Virus record (IMG/VR): IMGVR_UViG_3300025853_000066
Direction: 5' to 3' (one strand)
DNA: 20,000 bases
Source: an uncultured virus (IMG/VR IMGVR_UViG_3300025853_000066)
Taxonomy: Duplodnaviria; Heunggongvirae; Uroviricota; Caudoviricetes
In this document: in pieces, positions 4,462-20,000 of the stretch
Position numbering within the stretch: the first letter of the stretch is position 1
Layout of the letters: the number at the start of each line of letters is the position of its first letter
The notes under the pieces: model-generated
Seen by the model: the letters and a program-made list of their open reading frames with translations, nothing else
Database searches by the model: none
Told to the model about the DNA's origin: nothing
Position numbers and translations under genes: made by a program

Positions 4462-5031
4462 ATGGCTAACGCAGACACACCAAACGGTTTTGTACCTAAA
4501 AGACACTTAACCGGTGGCGTAATCAGAGCCAATGAATACCTAATTGCAAATGGCAAAGCTGCAAATTTCTTTTCTGGCGATATCGTAGATCTCGGATCAG
4601 ATGGATATTTAGACACTTTCGCTAATACTGAAAAAGCAATTGGAGTATTTTACGGCGCTGAATATGTCGATGAAAGTACAGGTGACGTGAAGTTTGTAAA
4701 AAAATGGACTTCCGGTACCACAGTAAAAGCTAACACAACAGTGAAAGCTTATGTTTATGACGACCCAATGATTACTTACACAGTACAGGCCGGTAACGGT
4801 TCTATTGCTCAAGCTAACATTGGTGAGACAGCAAACGTTCTATTAACAGCAGGTAATTCTACTTACGGTTATTCACAACACGAGTTGGATAACGATACTC
4901 TAGCAACAACTTCACTTGTTCTTAGAGTTCTAAGAAAAGTAGATGAGCCTAATAATGATTTCGGTGAGAATGCTAAAGTTGAAGTAGTTATCAACCAGCA
5001 CAGATTATCGACTCAAGGCGCAGGAGTATAA
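4462..5031 (+). CDS. Putative capsid decoration/cement or minor head protein
   Basis: TAAGGAGG RBS; beta-rich Gly/Thr/Asn composition with FxGDIV, GVFYG and VYDDP motifs; immediately upstream of the major capsid gene. Confidence 0.6.
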   Translation: MANADTPNGFVPKRHLTGGVIRANEYLIANGKAANFFSGDIVDLGSDGYLDTFANTEKAIGVFYGAEYVDESTGDVKFVKKWTSGTTVKANTTVKAYVYDDPMITYTVQAGNGSIAQANIGETANVLLTAGNSTYGYSQHELDNDTLATTSLVLRVLRKVDEPNNDFGENAKVEVVINQHRLSTQGAGV

Positions 5032-5037
5032 TAAGTT

Positions 5038-5946
5038 ATGGCATTAAATAGATCTTTATTTACAAAACAGCTTAACTTAGGCCTCAACACTATTTTTGGT
5101 ATGGAATATGACCGTTACCCAGAACAGTGGAGAGAAATATTCTCTGTTGAGCAATCACAAAAGGCTTTTGAAGAAGATGTACAGATGATTGGTTTCGGTG
5201 CAGCTCCTACTAAAGCAGAAGGCGCAGCTATCTCTTACGAATCAGGAAGAGAAGGTATTGTAGCAAGATATACCCACGAGACAATCGCATTAGCATTTTC
5301 AATTACTGAGGAAGCTGAAGAAGATGGTCTTTACGGTTCACTTGGTGCAAAGTACGCTAGAGCTTTAGCAAGATCAATGCAGCACACAAAAGAAATCAAA
5401 GGTGCTAACATCTTAAACAACGGCTTTAACACAGTAGTCGGTGGTGACGGAGTAAGCATGCTTAATGCATCTCACCCACTTGGCGGTGGCGGAACAGCTT
5501 CAAACATTCTCGCAACTGCAGCTGACTTATCAGAAACATCTCTAGAGACAATGTTAATTCAGATTTCTGAAATGACAGACGATAGAGGTATTCCTGTTGC
5601 AGCTACAGGTCAGAAGCTAATCGTTCCACCTGAGTTAATGTTTATTGCTGAAAGAATCATTAACAGTAACTTAAGACCAGGTACAGCTGACAATGATATT
5701 AACGCTATGAAATCAATGGGAATGATCCCTGGTGGCGTAGCAGTTAATCAGCGTCTAACTGACCCTGATGCGTTCTTCTTAATGACTGACGTGCCAGATG
5801 GCATGAAGCATTTCGTAAGACGTTCACTTAAAAAAGCTGTTGAAGGTGATTTTGAGACAGGAAACTTACGCTACAAAGTATCAGAAAGATATTCATTCGG
5901 TTTCACCGATTGGAGAGGTATCTTCGGTACTCCAGGCGCAGCCTAA
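5038..5946 (+). CDS. Major capsid protein (HK97-like fold)
   Basis: 302 aa with AGGAG RBS; motifs KAEGAAISY, YTHETIALAFSITEEAEED, KLIVPPEL, LTDPDAFFL, GDFETGNLRYKVSERYSFGFTDWRGIFG; followed by a hairpin. Confidence 0.9.
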   Translation: MALNRSLFTKQLNLGLNTIFGMEYDRYPEQWREIFSVEQSQKAFEEDVQMIGFGAAPTKAEGAAISYESGREGIVARYTHETIALAFSITEEAEEDGLYGSLGAKYARALARSMQHTKEIKGANILNNGFNTVVGGDGVSMLNASHPLGGGGTASNILATAADLSETSLETMLIQISEMTDDRGIPVAATGQKLIVPPELMFIAERIINSNLRPGTADNDINAMKSMGMIPGGVAVNQRLTDPDAFFLMTDVPDGMKHFVRRSLKKAVEGDFETGNLRYKVSERYSFGFTDWRGIFGTPGAA

Positions 5947-5959
5947 TAATTAAAAAACT

Positions 5960-5989
5960 GAGAGAGGGTGTTATCGCCCTCTCTTTCTC
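5960..5989 (+). terminator. Intrinsic terminator-like hairpin after the capsid gene
   Basis: AGAGAGGGTG (5961-5970), TTAT loop, CGCCCTCTCT (5975-5984); 10 bp with one G-U pair. Weak TTCT tail on +; the upstream A6 run gives a U-tract on the - strand. Confidence 0.7.
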
Positions 5990-5998
5990 AACATAACA

Positions 5999-6064
5999 AG
6001 TTACATAAACTGAGTTGAGCAGACGGTATAGAGATTATGTAACTCGGTCTATACACCAAGGAGG
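5999..6064 (+). promoter_or_regulatory. Candidate structured RNA (H-type pseudoknot) abutting an RBS
   Basis: P1: AGTTACATAA (5999-6008) pairs perfectly with TTATGTAACT (6035-6044). P2: loop GTATAGA (6026-6032) pairs perfectly with TCTATAC (6048-6054). AAGGAGG at 6058-6064. Confidence 0.65.
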
Positions 6065-6069
6065 TTAAT

Positions 6070-6297
6070 ATGGCTAACACTACTTTTTCAGGACCAGTTA
6101 TTTCAAATAACGGTTTTACAGCTACCGCAATTCTTTTTGCAGATTTGCCAACAGCTTCAGAAAATACAGGTCGTATCCTATTTGTATCAGATGCATTAAA
6201 AGCTTCTGAAACTACAGGTAACGGTACAGGGAACTTAGTTTTCTCTGACGGTTCGAACTGGATTAGAGTAGATACTGGCGCTACTGCTGGTGACTAA
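6070..6297 (+). CDS. Small putative virion protein
   Basis: AAGGAGG RBS; MANTTFSGPV start, LPTAS...GRILFVSD and VFSDGSNW motifs typical of small fibre/head-appendage domains. Confidence 0.75.
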   Translation: MANTTFSGPVISNNGFTATAILFADLPTASENTGRILFVSDALKASETTGNGTGNLVFSDGSNWIRVDTGATAGD

Positions 6298-6300
6298 TTA

Positions 6301-6330
6301 ATATAGGGCCTGTTAAAGGCCCTATTTATT
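6301..6330 (+). terminator. Intrinsic terminator-like hairpin
   Basis: ATAGGGCC (6303-6310), TGTTAAA, GGCCCTAT (6318-6325), followed by TTATT, right after the 6297 stop. Confidence 0.7.
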
Positions 6331-6348
6331 GTATATAGTTGCGATATC

Positions 6349-6816
6349 ATGTCAAGTTATATAGATCAATTTATTTACGATCCAAATAGAGATACTCAAA
6401 GAACATTTGAAGAAGTTCAAGCAGAAATGAAAAGCAATAAAGCTTATTCAACTAAAGAAGAAGAAGTACTAGATGTAGATTTAGAAAATGAAGAAACTAA
6501 AAGTGATGATAAAAAAGTTGATGAAGCATTAGAAAAAGCTGAGAAAAAAACTGATGAAGCAGTATCTCAATTATCAAAATATGCAGATGCTTACAAAAAA
6601 ATAGCTTCTTCTTCATCTGCTCAAAAACCAATTACAGGTCAAAATTTAATGGGAACACCTAGTTCAATGGGAGCATTTGGACCAATGAGTGCAGTACAAC
6701 AATCTACTAGTCCTTATTTTGCAAGTCAAGGAGTATTATCAACTGCCAAAATGAAAGAACTTGATTCTAAAATAGCAACATTAAGAAAAATTTTACAAGG
6801 AGGTGTCAATGTCTAG
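6349..6816 (+). CDS. Hypothetical protein (acidic/coiled N-half, Ser/Gln/Met-rich C-half)
   Basis: 155 aa ORF filling the gap; no clear SD and no recognisable motif. Confidence 0.65.
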   Translation: MSSYIDQFIYDPNRDTQRTFEEVQAEMKSNKAYSTKEEEVLDVDLENEETKSDDKKVDEALEKAEKKTDEAVSQLSKYADAYKKIASSSSAQKPITGQNLMGTPSSMGAFGPMSAVQQSTSPYFASQGVLSTAKMKELDSKIATLRKILQGGVNV

Positions 6817-7096
6817 TTCAGATATTTTCGCTAAAAGCACTACGACAACAGGAAGTGATGTTACTTTATTTGCTGGCCCAATAAGAATAAAAGGATTTAT
6901 TGTAACTCCTACAGGCACAGCAGGTACTGTTACTTTTAAAGATGGTAGTACTACACTATTCGCATTAAGCACGGCAGCATCAGCAGCATCTGGTCCAGTT
7001 CAGATTTCATTACCATCTGAAGGTATTAAATGTTCAACTAATGCTACTGTAAATTTAACTGCAGGTGTATCAGCGATAACAGTATTTATGGCGTAA
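6809..7096 (+). CDS. Small beta-rich putative virion protein
   Basis: Start moved from GTG 6803 to ATG 6809 because GGAGG at 6799-6803 is the RBS. Thr/Gly/Ala-rich (GPIRIKGF, GTVTFKDG, LPSEGIKC). Confidence 0.7.
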   Translation: MSSSDIFAKSTTTTGSDVTLFAGPIRIKGFIVTPTGTAGTVTFKDGSTTLFALSTAASAASGPVQISLPSEGIKCSTNATVNLTAGVSAITVFMA

Positions 7097-7779: not shown

Positions 7780-8143
7780 CAAACGTGGACCTAGAAAAGC
7801 ACCTTCTTTTCCTTTCGCTAAAGGAAAATATGCTCGAGCAATTTCAGATCGTTCAGGATTAGAATATCCTTATTTAGAAATGGTTCGTGAATGGAACGGA
7901 CTTTTAGTTCATACTAGCGAATATGAATCTAAACAACCACAACTCGATCCAATAGTTTTTAGTGATCCAGAAGCACTAAAGAATGCCAGACCTCAGGCTC
8001 CTCTTTCAGCTACAGGAGGCGTACCTAATCAATTATCAGTAATCTATCCGGGCACTTTCGGAGACACAGGACAGGAAGTAGGAGTAGCTACCGGAAACCA
8101 AATTGGATTGGAGTTAGGAAATGTCTCAGTCGTCATCAGCTAA
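7769..8143 (+). CDS. Conserved neck-region hypothetical protein
   Basis: GTG start overlapping the upstream stop; motif GKYARAISDRSGLEYPY...EWNGLLVH..EYESKQPQL...DPEALKNARP. Confidence 0.7.
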   Translation: MAFNKRGPRKAPSFPFAKGKYARAISDRSGLEYPYLEMVREWNGLLVHTSEYESKQPQLDPIVFSDPEALKNARPQAPLSATGGVPNQLSVIYPGTFGDTGQEVGVATGNQIGLELGNVSVVIS

Positions 8144-8906
8144 AGATGCATATATAATGCTTTGTACACCATGTTATGGTGGTATGATGCATGAAGCTTA
8201 TTTTCACAGTGTCGTAAAATTATTTCAAGAAGCAAGAGATAAAGAATTTAAAATTCATTTAAACACTATGGGAAACGAAAGTTTAATTACAAGAGGAAGA
8301 AACACGATGGTATCTCAATTTATGGATAATGAACATTGTACTCATTTATTATTTGTAGATTCCGATATCGCTTTCTATCCTGAATTAGTTACTAAATTAT
8401 TAGAATACGATAAAGATGTTGTAACAGCGATTTATCCTCGAAAGACTATTGAATGGAAAAATTTAGAATACTACGTTAAAAAAGGAGATCTAAAAACTAT
8501 GGAGCAAAAGTTATTAGGATATAACTTAAACTTTCCTGATCCCTTAAATATAGACGTACAAGACGGATTTGTAGAAGTATTAGATGCCGCTACAGGATTT
8601 ATGCTTATTAAAAAAGACGTATTTGTAAAAATGAGAGAAGCGTATCCTGAATTAAAATATACTTCCGATCAGATTATTAATAATAATAAATATTCTAGTG
8701 ATTGGTGCTATGCTTTTTTCGATTGTATGATTGATCCTAAAAGTAATCGATATTTAAGTGAAGATTATACATTCTGTCGTAGATGGCAGCAAATAGGTGG
8801 AAAAATATACGCTGAAATAACATATCCATTAACTCATTACGGAACTTACGGTTTTAGAGGAAATGTATCGCATAAATTTGCAAAAAAAGATAGTATAGAC
8901 GCATAA
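8121..8906 (+). CDS. GT-A fold glycosyltransferase-like protein
   Basis: TPCYGG, ESLITRGRN, DxD in HLLFVDSDI, ATGFMLIKKDVF, YLSEDYTFCRRW and terminal LTHYG: the motif order of nucleotide-sugar transferases (GT2-like). Confidence 0.8.
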   Translation: MSQSSSAKDAYIMLCTPCYGGMMHEAYFHSVVKLFQEARDKEFKIHLNTMGNESLITRGRNTMVSQFMDNEHCTHLLFVDSDIAFYPELVTKLLEYDKDVVTAIYPRKTIEWKNLEYYVKKGDLKTMEQKLLGYNLNFPDPLNIDVQDGFVEVLDAATGFMLIKKDVFVKMREAYPELKYTSDQIINNNKYSSDWCYAFFDCMIDPKSNRYLSEDYTFCRRWQQIGGKIYAEITYPLTHYGTYGFRGNVSHKFAKKDSIDA

Positions 8907-10700: not shown

Positions 10701-11143
10701 TGGCTTATATCGGTGCAGCTCCTCGTAATAATTTTGCAAGTTTAACCAGTCAACAGATTACTGGTGATGGTGGTTCTGTTTATACTTTAGATCGTCAAGT
10801 CACTGTACCCGAAGATTTGGCTTTGTTCGTCAATGAGGTGAGGCAGAATCCGAACACTTATACAATTTCCAATAGTGGACTTCAATTAAACTTAGGGGGA
10901 AATATCTCTGCGAGTGATACTTGTTATGTGGTCTACTTACAACAAACTTTAGAATCAGTTGGCCCGACACCAAGCACCGTGCAAGGCACAGCGTGTGCTC
11001 CTCAATTCTTTCAAAACAATCAACAGACTTTTAATGATTTAACTTTACCTGCCAATAGAAATTGCTCACTGGTAGGAACAATAACTGTAGCAGCAGGTAA
11101 CACTATTACTATTCCTGCTACCTCAACCTTGGTGATCATATGA
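10700..11143 (+). CDS. Tail adaptor-like protein, MxYIG paralogue 1
   Basis: MAYIG start, LFVNEVRQNP..YTI core (baseplate-wedge-like repeat), C-terminal beta-repeat VGTITVAAGNTITIPATSTLVII. Confidence 0.6.
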   Translation: MAYIGAAPRNNFASLTSQQITGDGGSVYTLDRQVTVPEDLALFVNEVRQNPNTYTISNSGLQLNLGGNISASDTCYVVYLQQTLESVGPTPSTVQGTACAPQFFQNNQQTFNDLTLPANRNCSLVGTITVAAGNTITIPATSTLVII

Positions 11144-11712
11144 CCAGTATTTTAGAAGTAGAACAACTCGATACGTTAAGCAGTAATGCTTCGAGTACCT
11201 TGACGATTGGTGGAACGAATACCACGACAATTGCTTTTGGTCCCAATGTAACTACGACACCGAGTAGTCTTGCGAATACCCCTGCTTTCAAAGTAGATAA
11301 AACAAGCACTCAATCTATAAGTGATGGTGTTTGGACAAAAGTAACTTTTACTAATGAGTATTATGATACAGATAATGCATTTGCTGATTCAAAATTTACA
11401 GTTCCTTCTGCTAAAGCAGGTAAATATTTTTTTTCTGCTATGTTAAGATGTACGGCTGATAATGGAACAGCAGAATATTACAGTTTAGCTTTTTATAAAA
11501 ATGGCAATAGAGAATCAATTACCAATCAATTACAAACAGCGGACAATCAATTAAGAAATTCACATATATTTGCTTCTGCAACTTTTAATTTATCAGTAGG
11601 ACAATACATAGAGGTTTATGCAAATTTTGGAGCAAACAATCCCGTTGTTGGAGGTAGTGCGTCTCAAGATATTGCTTCTTTTTTTACAGGATTTAAATTA
11701 ATAGGAGTATAA
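11140..11712 (+). CDS. Tail-associated C1q/TNF-like domain protein 1
   Basis: TPAF, KVTFTNEYYDTDNAF, KFTVP..AGKYFFSA, LSVGQYIEVY, FFTGFKLIG match the gC1q jelly-roll pattern. ATGA overlap. Confidence 0.7.
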   Translation: MTSILEVEQLDTLSSNASSTLTIGGTNTTTIAFGPNVTTTPSSLANTPAFKVDKTSTQSISDGVWTKVTFTNEYYDTDNAFADSKFTVPSAKAGKYFFSAMLRCTADNGTAEYYSLAFYKNGNRESITNQLQTADNQLRNSHIFASATFNLSVGQYIEVYANFGANNPVVGGSASQDIASFFTGFKLIGV

Positions 11713-12230
11713 TGAGCAACATCTTAGTCAACACCATTAAAGACACAGGCAATAATACGTTGCTCAGTAGTGACGGTTCAGGGTCCGTGACTCTTGGTTC
11801 AGGGTTCCCTCAGAATACTCCTAGTTTTAGAGCTTACGCTAGTTCGAACTTTACTACTGCAAATGGTACAAGAACTATTGTTCCTTTTGACAGTGTAACA
11901 TTTGATACAGGAAATTATTTTAACACATCGACTTATCGGTACACACCATTAGTTGCTGGTTATTATAATTTTTTTGCTACAGTTAAAGCTAATTCTGCTA
12001 CAGATGCAGAAAATTTCGTTATCTATATTAGAAAAAATGAAACAGAAATTATGGAAGTCACAAGTCCTCAATTATATTATAATTCTGTCAATGGTTCTAT
12101 TATCACACATTTAGATGGTGTTGATGATTTTGTAGATGTATATGTCAGACAAGATAGTGGTGGTAATTTAGAATATAACGGATTAGATAAAAAAGTTTAT
12201 TTTCAAGGGTTTAGATTAATAGGAGCATAA
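11712..12230 (+). CDS. Tail-associated C1q/TNF-like domain protein 2
   Basis: TPSF, VPFDSVTFDTGNYFN, RYTPLVAGYYNFFA, DFVDVYV, FQGFRLIG. Confidence 0.72.
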   Translation: MSNILVNTIKDTGNNTLLSSDGSGSVTLGSGFPQNTPSFRAYASSNFTTANGTRTIVPFDSVTFDTGNYFNTSTYRYTPLVAGYYNFFATVKANSATDAENFVIYIRKNETEIMEVTSPQLYYNSVNGSIITHLDGVDDFVDVYVRQDSGGNLEYNGLDKKVYFQGFRLIGA

Positions 12231-12797
12231 ATGACAAGCAAGATCAAAGTAAACATACTCGCTGACGGTGGAGATAACTCAATCATCACCTCCGATGGTG
12301 CGGGAAGCTTTACTCCTGCTTCAGGATTAGCGACAGGTGTTCTTGCGATGACTCCTGCTTTTCATGCTTTTTTAAGTTCTACTCAAAGTTTATCAGATGA
12401 TACTACAACAAAAGTTCAATGTAATAGTGAATTATATGATACCGATAATTGTTATGACAATTCTACTAACTATCGTTTTACACCAACAGTAGCAGGAAAA
12501 TATTTTGTTTACGGAAGTTGGATGAGTGATAATAGTACCGCCTCTACTCTTCAATATGGTAATGCAAGAATACGAAAGAACGGCTCTGATATACTTTTTC
12601 AAGTTTTAGATTTTAGAAATAATTATGCTGGATATAGTAACACCTTTGCTGTATCTGGCGTTGTAGATTTTAATGGAACTACCGATTATGTAGAGTTGTA
12701 TGCTACTATAAAAATTTCTTCAGGAACGACTGGAATTGGTGGTAATGCAACACATAGTAGAACCGCTTTTGGAGCATACAGGATTATAGGAGCATAG
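12231..12797 (+). CDS. Tail-associated C1q/TNF-like domain protein 3
   Basis: TPAF, ELYDTDNCYD, RFTPTVAGKYFVY, DYVELY, FGAYRIIG. Confidence 0.72.
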   Translation: MTSKIKVNILADGGDNSIITSDGAGSFTPASGLATGVLAMTPAFHAFLSSTQSLSDDTTTKVQCNSELYDTDNCYDNSTNYRFTPTVAGKYFVYGSWMSDNSTASTLQYGNARIRKNGSDILFQVLDFRNNYAGYSNTFAVSGVVDFNGTTDYVELYATIKISSGTTGIGGNATHSRTAFGAYRIIGA

Positions 12798-12800
12798 ACC

Positions 12801-13895
12801 ATGGCACTCACAACATTACCCACCGCAGCATTCGCCACAGGATCCGTGGGCACTTCACAATTAGCGGATGGTGCAGTGACCACCGAGAAGTTAGTAGCGG
12901 ATGTCAACTTCCGTAACCTCATCATCAATGGTGATATGTCTATTGCACAGAGGTCAACCAGCACATCAAGTTACAGTGGAATATCATACAGCACGGTAGA
13001 TAGATTCAAAACAGTTTTTGAATATGGCACCTACACAGTTAGCCAAGAATCTTTGTCTAGTGGTGCCGCCTACAACGCAGGATTTAGAACAGCATTCAAG
13101 GCTTTAGTCACTTCAACAGCATCTCCAGGAGCAGCAGGAGAACAAGTAACATTTGAGCAAAGAATAGAAGGACTAATGTGCCAAGCACTTAAAAAAGGCA
13201 CATCAAATGCTGAAAGTTTAACTTTATCATTTTGGGTAAGGTCATCTAAAACTGGCACTAATCTACAAGTAAATTTAAGAGATAATGATAATGATAGAAT
13301 CATTGGTGCCACATATGATATTAACACAGCAAACACATGGGAAAAGAAAACTTTTACATTCGCTGGAGACACTTCGGGAGCGTTAGACAACGATAATGGT
13401 CAATCTCTTATATTAGAATGGTGGTTAGATGGTGGTTCAAATTATTCTGGAGGATCAGTGCCTACCTCATGGCAAGCTAGAAATAATACTGATAGAAATG
13501 TAACAAACTTTGATTTGGCAGGTGGTACAGACGATTGGTGGATCACAGGAGTCCAACTCGAAGTCGGTACATCTGCTAGTAACTTTGAGTTCTTACCTTA
13601 TGATGTGAATTTACAGAGGTGTCAAAGATATTTTGAATTTGCTGAAGGTGGATATCAAGGTCCTGTTTATGGAACTGCAACTGACATGAGAGTAAGTGTT
13701 CCTTTCAAAGTTACAAAAAGAGCCAATCCAACTCTTACTAAAATTAGTGGTAATGAAAATTGTTGTAGTTCAGTTACAGTAGTAGTAGCTTCTATAGACG
13801 AAACACTAGGTGCTAGAGTTCAAGGTACAAATGTTTTTTCAGCAGGTGCAGGTAAATATTGGAATGTCAAATTTAGTGCAGACTCGGAGTTATAA
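12801..13895 (+). CDS. Tail fibre/receptor-binding protein with putative carbohydrate-binding domain, paralogue A
   Basis: Short fibre repeat (LADGAVTTEKL), NLIINGDMSIAQR, DRF, TLSFWV, WEKKTFTF.GDT, TGVQLEVG, LQRCQRYF, then a separate C-terminal beta domain (F.VTKRANPT). Confidence 0.7.
   Translation: MALTTLPTAAFATGSVGTSQLADGAVTTEKLVADVNFRNLIINGDMSIAQRSTSTSSYSGISYSTVDRFKTVFEYGTYTVSQESLSSGAAYNAGFRTAFKALVTSTASPGAAGEQVTFEQRIEGLMCQALKKGTSNAESLTLSFWVRSSKTGTNLQVNLRDNDNDRIIGATYDINTANTWEKKTFTFAGDTSGALDNDNGQSLILEWWLDGGSNYSGGSVPTSWQARNNTDRNVTNFDLAGGTDDWWITGVQLEVGTSASNFEFLPYDVNLQRCQRYFEFAEGGYQGPVYGTATDMRVSVPFKVTKRANPTLTKISGNENCCSSVTVVVASIDETLGARVQGTNVFSAGAGKYWNVKFSADSEL
13594..13624 (+). repeat. 31-nt exact direct repeat, copy 1
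   Basis: TACCTTATGATGTGAATTTACAGAGGTGTCA, identical to 19928-19958. Confidence 0.92.
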
Positions 13896-19183: not shown

Positions 19184-20000
19184 TGGCCATCACCCGCTTA
19201 GGACCGAACCAAGATATCACCGCTGCGAAGATTGCGGGACAGATCAATTTTAAGAATTTGATTATCAACGGGGATATGTCCATACATCAAAGAGGTAGTG
19301 CTGTTACCTCTACGAATGGTTTTGGAGTAGATAGATTTCAATACAACGATTCAAATAATTATGATCAAAGAGTATTTACATTTAATCAAGACACAGATGT
19401 ACCTACTGGTCAAGGTTTTGGAAAATCAATGAAAATAAATGTAACAACGCCAGAAACAACAATAGCATCAGATGAATATGCTAGGGTTTTTACTAGACTA
19501 GAAGGTCAAAATTTACAGCAATTAAAATTTGGAACATCTAGTGCAGAAAGCGTTACTCTATCTTTTTGGTTAAAAACAAATGTTACTGGGAATTTTGCAG
19601 TATCTTTATTATTAGATGATGACTCTAGAATTATAGGAAATACTTACTCAGCTACTTCATCTGGCGTTTGGGAAAAAATCACTATTACATTTGCGGGAGA
19701 TACAACAGGAGTTATTGATAACGACAATGGCTCTGGTATGAGAGTGATGTTTATTACAGATGCGGGAAGTGATTTTACATCAAGCGATAATACTTCTTGG
19801 GGTTCTTACTCAAATGCAAAGTTAGGATATGGACAAACTGCTTCTGTCTTTGGAACAACAAGTGGTTATTGGAATGTTACAGGCGTTCAACTCGAAGCAG
19901 ATACATCCGCCTCGGATTTCGAATTTATACCTTATGATGTGAATTTACAGAGGTGTCAGAGGTATTATCAAATATTTGGTTCTACTGCACCTACTTCGTG
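19183..20000 (+). CDS. Tail fibre/receptor-binding protein, paralogue B (3'-truncated; absent from ORF track)
   Basis: ATG at 19183 (TAATG overlap), open to the window end: MAITRLGPNQDITAAKIAGQINFKNLIINGDMSIHQR...VDRF...KFGTSSAESVTLSFW...WEKITITFAGDT...TGVQLEADTSASDFEFIPYDVNLQRCQRYY. Clear paralogue of 12801..13895. Confidence 0.85.
   Translation, partial: MAITRLGPNQDITAAKIAGQINFKNLIINGDMSIHQRGSAVTSTNGFGVDRFQYNDSNNYDQRVFTFNQDTDVPTGQGFGKSMKINVTTPETTIASDEYARVFTRLEGQNLQQLKFGTSSAESVTLSFWLKTNVTGNFAVSLLLDDDSRIIGNTYSATSSGVWEKITITFAGDTTGVIDNDNGSGMRVMFITDAGSDFTSSDNTSWGSYSNAKLGYGQTASVFGTTSGYWNVTGVQLEADTSASDFEFIPYDVNLQRCQRYYQIFGSTAPTS
19928..19958 (+). repeat. 31-nt exact direct repeat, copy 2
   Basis: TACCTTATGATGTGAATTTACAGAGGTGTCA, identical to 13594-13624. 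Confidence 0.92.

Follow-up and report, generated by a model that had tools for sequence, protein, structure and literature searches.

What occupies the short non-coding interval between the major capsid gene and the next ribosome-binding site of an uncultured marine tailed phage, and what might it do there? The question arises in a stretch of 20,000 nt (hereafter the window, numbered from its first base) of the IMG/VR record IMGVR_UViG_3300025853_000066, a virus record of 38,360 bases which is estimated to be 63% complete and in which the element discussed below is present once. The reading favored here, with a probability of roughly 0.6, is that positions 5987–6069 form the cis-acting 5' leader of the mRNA of a 75-aa gene, a knot built on a three-way junction which represents a subtype of the superfamily around the Rfam family RF03012 (Mu-gpT-DE) and which sets the translation, and probably the survival, of this message.

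The surrounding genes correspond to a phage head-to-tail module with a portal, a Mu gpT-like major capsid protein, an SU10-type adaptor and fibres. The major capsid gene (5038–5946, + strand), the upstream neighbor of the element, matches the PHROG major head protein and, in Pfam, Phage_capsid_4 (E 9e-14) and PF10124, Mu-like_gpT (E 4.7e-8). The nearest GenBank phages by capsid identity (58–62%) are the Roseobacter phages CRP-901 and CRP-902 and the Pelagibacter phage HTVC023P. A megablast search of 5000–7000 against GenBank phages returned zero matches, and the relatives of the window were drawn from IMG/VR. The capsid stop codon is followed by a hairpin (5960–5985, GAGAGAGGG / CCCTCTCTT) which has a weak U tail on the + strand and is listed by the terminator scan for the − strand only; no + strand promoter-like site within 5950–6000 is found among the sites listed. 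The 75-aa gene (6070–6297, + strand; product MANTTFSGPV...) is followed by an intrinsic terminator (6303–6325, + strand), the top + strand terminator-like site of the scan. Elsewhere in the window, the ORF 8121–8906, located within the block of virion genes, shows a weak PHROG match to a glycosyltransferase (E 2e-7) and to a family of unknown function. Three consecutive ORFs (11140–12797; 190, 172, and 188 aa) share near-identical ends of 30–34 nt including the next ribosome-binding site (repeat families D5 and D14) and look like tandem paralogues, and a 104-nt direct repeat (D1, 76% identical) lies in two fibre-like genes (13534–13637 and 19868–19971).

A preliminary description of the locus had drawn a perfect H-type pseudoknot in the interval, and the pairings that it named are present base for base. 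The sequence AGTTACATAA (5999–6008) is the perfect reverse complement of TTATGTAACT (6035–6044), GTATAGA (6026–6032) is that of TCTATAC (6048–6054), the mini-hairpin CTG (6010–6012) / CAG (6020–6022) is confirmed, and AAGGAGG begins at 6058, 3 nt past the second helix, followed by the ATG at 6070. The accompanying argument that two such interleaved helices are unlikely by chance is weak. The element is the sole perfect + strand pseudoknot that a script finds in the window with S1 of at least 9 and S2 of at least 7; at least one equal perfect pseudoknot, however, occurs in 25 of 300 (8%) dinucleotide-preserving shuffles of the 20-kb window. The nested fold of 5990–6075 is likewise ordinary (z = −0.99; 33 of 200 shuffles fold as well), so that the sequence by itself is no more than suggestive. 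An alternative hairpin between 6046–6052 and the AUG region, seen in the minimum free energy fold, was dropped because the spacer between the Shine-Dalgarno sequence and the AUG is variable among relatives, as judged by eye. Rfam searches gave no match at gathering scores over the whole window and chance hits only at E<=10 over 5900–6400, RF03012 not being among them. The riboswitch and ribozyme classes, covered by all Rfam 15 covariance models, yielded sub-threshold chance hits, the best being Ref66 with 21 bits against a gathering score of 92.

The evidence for a selected structure comes from relatives sharing the same layout, here termed subtype A. These were collected from IMG/VR contigs by a search in which six of the seven positions in the 5' strand of the second helix (P2) were left free, which yielded at least 120 contigs. 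The resulting alignment of 77 distinct leaders, the window's included (A3), replaced an 18-sequence alignment (A1) whose selection had that strand fixed. A further metagenome scan with the pattern made one N longer after CAGACGG gave nine loci, seven of them subtype A members with an extra G and two of them chance hits. Across the 77 sequences, the long stem (P1) has both partners changed at 8 of 11 pairs, with 90.6% of cells paired, and is predicted independently by RNAalifold. The 10-bp stem of the preliminary description survives in its inner part: its outermost pair, 5999–6044, is unpaired in 49 of 59 scorable sequences and thus not conserved, which leaves 6000–6008 with 6035–6043 as the conserved P1. 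An additional helix which had been overlooked (P0) is paired in 98.6% of cells and carries compensatory changes at five of six pairs, with variants such as CTAGC/GCTAG, ACAAGC/GCTTGT, CTAAC/GTTAG, and CTTGC/GCAAG. P2 behaves differently, since none of its seven pairs shows a compensatory change in subtype A: 71 of the 77 sequences are identical, four carry a C to U change giving G-U, and two have a terminal mismatch. For the structure as a whole, 95.2% of 1786 cells are paired and 13 pairs are compensatory, as opposed to 15–44% pairing in slid controls, and its covariation score was reached in 0 of 500 column shuffles. One-sided changes in P1 mostly lead to G-U pairs, i.e., A-C mismatches on the other strand, and this fits an RNA of the sense strand only. 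The structure 5987–6069 is therefore under selection, with P0 and P1 established by covariation, and the proposal of an RNA element proves correct in that a genuine sense-strand structure directly precedes the post-capsid ribosome-binding site.

Regarding its geometry, the element differs from the H-type pseudoknot originally drawn. It is better described as a three-way junction in which two hairpin loops pair with the 5' and the 3' flank, respectively, with at least one helix more than had been assumed. Three helices, P1, PX, and PY, are joined by three single unpaired A's, each set in a G-A-C strand, which consists of the last base of one helix, the unpaired A and the first base of the next. 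Read along the + strand of the window, the P0 5' strand CTCAAC (5987–5992) is followed by the P1 5' strand GTTACATAA (6000–6008) and the first junction A (6009, an invariant column), whose strand reads A-A-C here, the closing pair being A-U. The PX hairpin (6010–6022) has the stem CTG/CAG, invariant in subtype A, and the 7-nt loop AGTTGAG, of which GTTGAG (6014–6019) is the 3' strand of P0. The central junction A (6023) is invariant and leads into PY (6024–6033), where the closing pair C6024–G6033 surrounds the 8-nt loop GGTATAGA; PY is invariant in 75 of 77 sequences and its loop contains the P2 5' strand GTATAGA. The third junction A (6034, again an invariant column) lies in a G-A-C strand that reads G-A-T in the window, and the P1 3' strand TTATGTAAC (6035–6043), assigned through the covariation of P1, closes the junction. 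The loop enclosed by P1 thus reads ACTGAGTTGAGCAGACGGTATAGAGA, matching the plan of an outer helix followed by G-AC, a hairpin, GAC, and GA-C. Downstream, a P3 mini-hairpin is proposed (6046–6057, GG 6046–47 with CC 6056–57) whose loop would hold the P2 3' strand TCTATAC. The Shine-Dalgarno sequence AAGGAGG (6058–6064) follows; its last GG can alternatively pair with CC 6056–57 (ACC/GGT).

The proposal of P3 stems from the spacing of the helices. In subtype A, the linker between P1 and the P2 3' strand measures 2–6 nt, which by pseudoknot geometry is probably too short to span a stem of 9–10 bp in a coaxial H-type knot, and a classical pseudoknot of this kind with a P1 of 9–10 bp looks sterically impossible. 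The short linker, the GG (6046–47) and CC (6056–57) that are invariant throughout subtype A, and the stems found at the same position in HTVC023P and in subtypes D and E together led to a kissing-loop arrangement of P2 and P3, which would remove the linker problem. The P2 3' segment would probably sit in the loop of the 2-bp hairpin P3, making P2 a loop-loop kiss, and the column of PY (1 bp), P2 (7), and P3 (2) would equal P1 in length. With the PX loop paired to the 5' flank and the PY loop to the bases immediately preceding the Shine-Dalgarno sequence, the start of the leader and the upstream border of the ribosome-binding site would be held together in a single compact knot. As an alternative to this kissing-loop fold, the element may switch between two states, P1 on the one hand and a nested combination of P0 and P2 on the other, which are of comparable stability (−6.8 kcal/mol for P1 alone and −10.4 kcal/mol for P0+P2).

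The same plan recurs far beyond subtype A. A survey of the 140 nt preceding 80 homologues of the small gene gave 69 distinct leaders, 66 of which parse into the junction plan by a parser that itself required the pattern; L097 and L123 do not parse, and L048 is mis-parsed. The plan comprises the outer helix P1 with a loop that starts AC after the closing G, the PX hairpin, the central GAC, a short PY loop closed by C-G, and GA before the closing C. Helix sequences are wholly different between subtypes, while the architecture is the same and the downstream genes are homologous. Even the short PX stem varies, reading CUG/CAG in some subtypes, CAG/CUG in B, D, E, and L144, and CAAC/GTTG in L119. 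The simplest relatives, adjoining capsid genes 79–100% identical to that of the window, are plain three-way junctions with the Shine-Dalgarno sequence in the PY loop; the remaining leaders add two pairings, P0 between the PX loop and the 5' flank and P2 between the PY loop and the 3' flank. The longest Watson-Crick run between a PY loop and its own 3' flank is 5–7 (mean 6.2), as opposed to 3.7 with foreign flanks, and in a partner-swap test the observed sum was reached in 0 of 100000 permutations. Shuffles of individual flanks have little power, with p mostly 0.002–0.3 for P2 and 0.07–1.0 for P0.

Covariation of P2, the helix behind the pseudoknot claim, is absent from subtype A and appears in the equivalent helix of the sister subtypes D, E, and B. 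Subtype D was collected with a pattern that left the PY loop free (67 distinct sequences after two chance hits were dropped) and shows compensatory changes at seven of nine P1 pairs and three of six P2 pairs, with 402 of 402 P2 cells paired. Here, the P2 3' strand lies in the loop of a hairpin whose 3-bp stem, P3 (CUC/GAG), is 100% paired, with one compensatory case. Among the 11 sequences of subtype E, compensatory pairs number one of seven in P2, four of nine in P1, and two of five in P0. The P3 position reads CC...GG in HTVC023P, CUC/GAG or CUU/AAG in D, and CCU/AGG in E, and the stems there are 3–4 bp long in D and E. P2 in the window's own subtype is accordingly proposed solely by analogy with its sisters, and P3 in the window is likewise a predicted helix. 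A mixed alignment (A5) was not counted, as subtypes D and D' align in different registers. In D and D' (L126, L143), the 5' partner of the PX loop, CGGG/CCGGG, can often pair with a second copy of CCCG/CCCGG in the 5' flank; this copy is missing in several members, and an alternative pairing is possible. Three of the subtypes are represented by at least 120 IMG/VR contigs each.

One of the sister subtypes is already catalogued. Subtype B corresponds to RF03012, since the leaders of L085, L092, L099, and L103 (the latter a twin of the L104 leader) score 57–75 bits against a gathering threshold of 49, and the copy just before gp56 of CRP-901 scores 72 bits; the subtype A relatives L090 and L157, and likewise HTVC023P, gave no RF03012 match. 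The Mu-gpT-DE motif reportedly originates from the 2017 survey of marine metagenomes by Weinberg et al. The main text of that survey does not mention Mu-gpT-DE, and a preprint and its journal version place it among RNAs with extra covarying pairs. Rfam types the family as “Gene; sRNA” and marks just two helices, P1 and the inner hairpin, with no pseudoknot, yet the consensus runs through AGGAG to the AUG, ending ...GACAGGAGAUuaACAUG. In 107 distinct subtype B sequences, the PY loop covaries with the start region of the following ORF: AGCCA is found with AUGGCU, UUGCCA with AUGGCAA, and UCGCCA with AUGGCGA. In all ten AUGGG sequences the loop has ACC(C/U) in place of GCCA; the other sequences, with AUGGC, have GCC there except for two probable chance hits, and about 20 sequences keep a mere 4-bp match. 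The Shine-Dalgarno sequence lies within the P1 3' strand and the AUG within P2. This covariation with the start codon region identifies RF03012 as the leader of an mRNA, with a pseudoknot to the start codon that Rfam does not annotate.

The likeness between RF03012 and the window extends from gene context to the core of the fold. Both elements follow a Mu gpT-like capsid gene and immediately precede the Shine-Dalgarno sequence and AUG of a homologous small gene, the proteins of the RF03012-like loci L104 and L107 being 72% identical to that of the window. In both, the loop of P1 opens with G-AC, has GAC at its center and closes with GA-C; the inner hairpin follows the first GAC, and the PY loop pairs with the sequence of the ribosome-binding site. 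They differ in that RF03012 lacks P0, whereas PX of the window is cut to 3 bp with a loop that pairs with the 5' flank. Furthermore, the PY loop of the window pairs 16–22 nt upstream of the AUG and that of RF03012 with the AUG and codon 2, and P1 of the window is free of the Shine-Dalgarno sequence which forms the P1 3' strand in RF03012. The element in the window is therefore a divergent, uncatalogued subtype of the superfamily that includes RF03012; the novelty claimed at the outset applies to the sequence, which is unmatched in Rfam, and not to the class as a whole.

The genomic position of the element ties it to the small gene. A capsid homologue lies upstream of this gene in 69 of 80 loci, and the distance from the capsid end to the small gene is 104–208 nt in 54 loci, 387 nt in one, and 595–842 nt in 14. 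In these 14 loci, the leader remains immediately adjacent to the small gene despite an intervening gene, and in L098 no capsid gene occurs within 1500 nt. Versions of the leader are found in three cultured phages, namely HTVC023P before gp41 (A-like; L648, 2190–2275), HTVC027P before gp62 (subtype C; L650, 2330–2450), and CRP-901 before gp56 (subtype B; L649, 2194–2246), of which Rfam finds the CRP-901 copy only. The leader of HTVC027P is separated from the capsid gene gp59 by gp60 and gp61. That the leader stays with the small gene even when apart from the capsid gene, together with the pairing of the RF03012 loop with the start codon, argues for a role as mRNA leader.

In most phages, the fold appears to start at about position +1 of a short transcription unit of its own, consisting of promoter, leader, gene and terminator. 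This is suggested by a terminator T-run upstream in 76 of 77 subtype A members and a −10-like hexamer 4–10 nt before P0 in 44 of 77, as well as by a TATAAT 7 nt before P0 in HTVC023P. The window is the exception, as P0 abuts the capsid hairpin and is preceded by neither a terminator T-run nor a promoter-like spacer, which suggests that the leader is internal to a read-through capsid transcript. The capsid gene and hairpin of the window are 95–100% identical to those of L001, L003, and L010. Identity stops right after ...CCCTCTCTTTC, past which these loci have a different, simpler leader and a 151-aa gene; the next gene of the window (6349–6816) is 40% identical to its counterpart in L005. The sequence comparison points to a module swap at the capsid hairpin which may also have removed the leader's own promoter. 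For HTVC027P, Table S3 of PMC12753301 gives 28,568 TPM for gp62 at the last time point, consistent with a late, abundant mRNA, and the values taken from this source for its neighbors are 74,585 for the capsid gene, 11,866 for gp60, 36,186 for the 40-codon gp61, and 9,428 for gp63. In these values the rise already occurs at gp61, before the leader, and is thus no proof of a promoter at the leader.

The product of the 75-aa gene has 192 homologues, and of the 120 listed none is named or assigned a Pfam domain; its start resembles that of the conserved ORF associated with RF03012 (MAxTTFxGP...). The AlphaFold (AF2) model has a pLDDT of 88; its BFVD matches (E 2e-5 to 7e-4) are to N-terminal domains in predicted tail fibres and tailspikes of phages, while a fold search of the PDB gave nothing at E<=0.001. 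On the basis of this model, the fold is similar to the N-terminal domain by which such proteins are anchored to the virion. It is acidic, with seven D/E versus three K/R. The 75-aa and the 151-aa post-capsid proteins, otherwise unrelated, have in common their first ten residues, M-x-x-T-T-F-S-G-P-V/I. Since the third codon positions of this shared start vary, conservation acts at the level of protein, and the ten residues may be a docking peptide.

Taken together, the cis-regulatory role proposed in the preliminary description is the best reading of the element. The coupling of the PY loop to the edge of the Shine-Dalgarno sequence, to this sequence itself or to the AUG across subtypes argues for control of translation initiation, and an additional protection of the 5' end is suggested by the fact that the first bases of the transcript are paired. 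The knot would thus set the translation efficiency of a late mRNA, probably also its lifetime. An effect on translation is less obvious in the window, where the Shine-Dalgarno sequence and the AUG lie outside P1 (which ends at 6043), outside the PY-loop pairing and outside any conserved helix, unlike in subtypes B, C, D, and E.

The part of this reading which concerns mRNA survival could in principle be the whole function, with the knot stalling the 5'-end-dependent RNases E or J and thereby stabilizing the downstream mRNA, in the manner of 5' stem-loop stabilizers or, topologically, of viral exoribonuclease-resistant RNAs. Across all subtypes, no more than a few nucleotides separate the first helix strand from the inferred transcript start, and the homologue mRNA in HTVC027P has three times the abundance of that of the next gene in the values cited above, with the reservation that the step begins at gp61, ahead of the leader. 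Flaviviral xrRNAs are three-way junctions locked by pseudoknots to a 5' segment and from a hairpin loop to the 3' flank, a layout shared by the junction of the window with its one 5' pseudoknot and its hairpin loop paired to the 3' flank. They differ in that they act in eukaryotic hosts, have Xrn1 as their target and accommodate the 5' partner in the junction, whereas that of the window pairs within the PX loop; the window moreover shows no sequence or Rfam similarity to them, nor did any other such family match. As the element is not at a 5' end in the window, and as the tight coupling of the PY loop to the Shine-Dalgarno sequence or AUG in sister subtypes favors translation over decay alone, nuclease blocking as the sole role is considered unlikely.

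Somewhat less likely still is a switch responding to a ligand or protein, i.e., a riboswitch-like element or translational operator in which binding to a pocket of the junction or loops turns translation on or off, either by shifting the balance between P1 and P0+P2 or by stabilizing the kiss. The junction nucleotides and both P2 strands are invariant in the 77 sequences while P0 and P1 drift, a degree of conservation that exceeds the needs of pairing, and the comparable energies of P1 and P0+P2 would suit two alternative states; the simplest relatives, however, are plain three-way junctions without alternative pairing. Pseudoknots at the ribosome-binding site are the usual format of small riboswitches such as SAM-II/V, preQ1-II/III, and the glutamine-II “Downstream-peptide” RNAs. 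With these, the element has in common a size of about 60–80 nt, a pseudoknot that adjoins or includes the Shine-Dalgarno sequence, invariant junction nucleotides and an origin in marine phage or metagenome DNA. It differs by its three-way junction with two loop-flank helices, by the lack of a match to any riboswitch family in Rfam, and by a downstream gene whose function suggests no candidate ligand. The operators of T4 gene 32, of S4 in the E. coli alpha operon and of S15 (rpsO) also are pseudoknotted folds directly upstream of or overlapping the ribosome-binding site of the regulated gene, and T4 gene 32 is a further case of a late or abundant phage mRNA with a structured 5' leader. These operators are bound by their own nucleic-acid-binding products, whereas the product here is a small, acidic, fibre-anchor-like protein and a poor candidate for an RNA binder, which makes classical autoregulation unlikely.

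The idea that the element is a self-cleaving or RNase-processed site which parts the capsid message from the downstream message is very unlikely. Its location between a highly expressed gene and the next one would be apt, and so would the compact multi-pseudoknot fold with invariant junction nucleotides. No ribozyme family matched, though, the upstream T-runs and −10-like hexamers of most subtype A members leave no need for cleavage there, and the element lies away from the capsid gene in 14 loci. Scarcely more credit, and if anything a little less, is due to an independent gene for a trans-acting small RNA, which is what the Rfam label of RF03012 implies, given that the Rfam consensus itself extends to the AUG, changes in the loop track codon 2 of the downstream ORF and no terminator separates element and ORF. 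Chance complementarity without function, for which the shuffled windows and the ordinary folding energy of the nested fold could be cited, has next to nothing left in its favor in view of the covariation in 77 relatives and the recurrence of the architecture in at least five sequence-unrelated subtypes.

With the 5' leader of the small gene as the preferred reading, an orphan Rfam “sRNA” becomes part of a far more extensive family of mRNA leaders, most of which is missed by the Rfam model RF03012. The architecture of this family is defined by a three-way junction and by loop-flank pairings that reach the Shine-Dalgarno sequence or the AUG. The versions in three cultured phages make the function of these leaders directly testable. 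It is a bolder and rather doubtful suggestion that the threefold G-A-C junction with its loop-flank kisses constitutes a new functional class of RNA in marine phages, an xrRNA counterpart or a new switch, of which RF03012 would be merely one of at least five subtypes. If so, the element would be either the version of an xrRNA in the bacterial world, protecting a late mRNA of high abundance, or a new switch of the riboswitch or protein-sensing type, through which production of a capsid-accessory protein would depend on the state of the infected cell.
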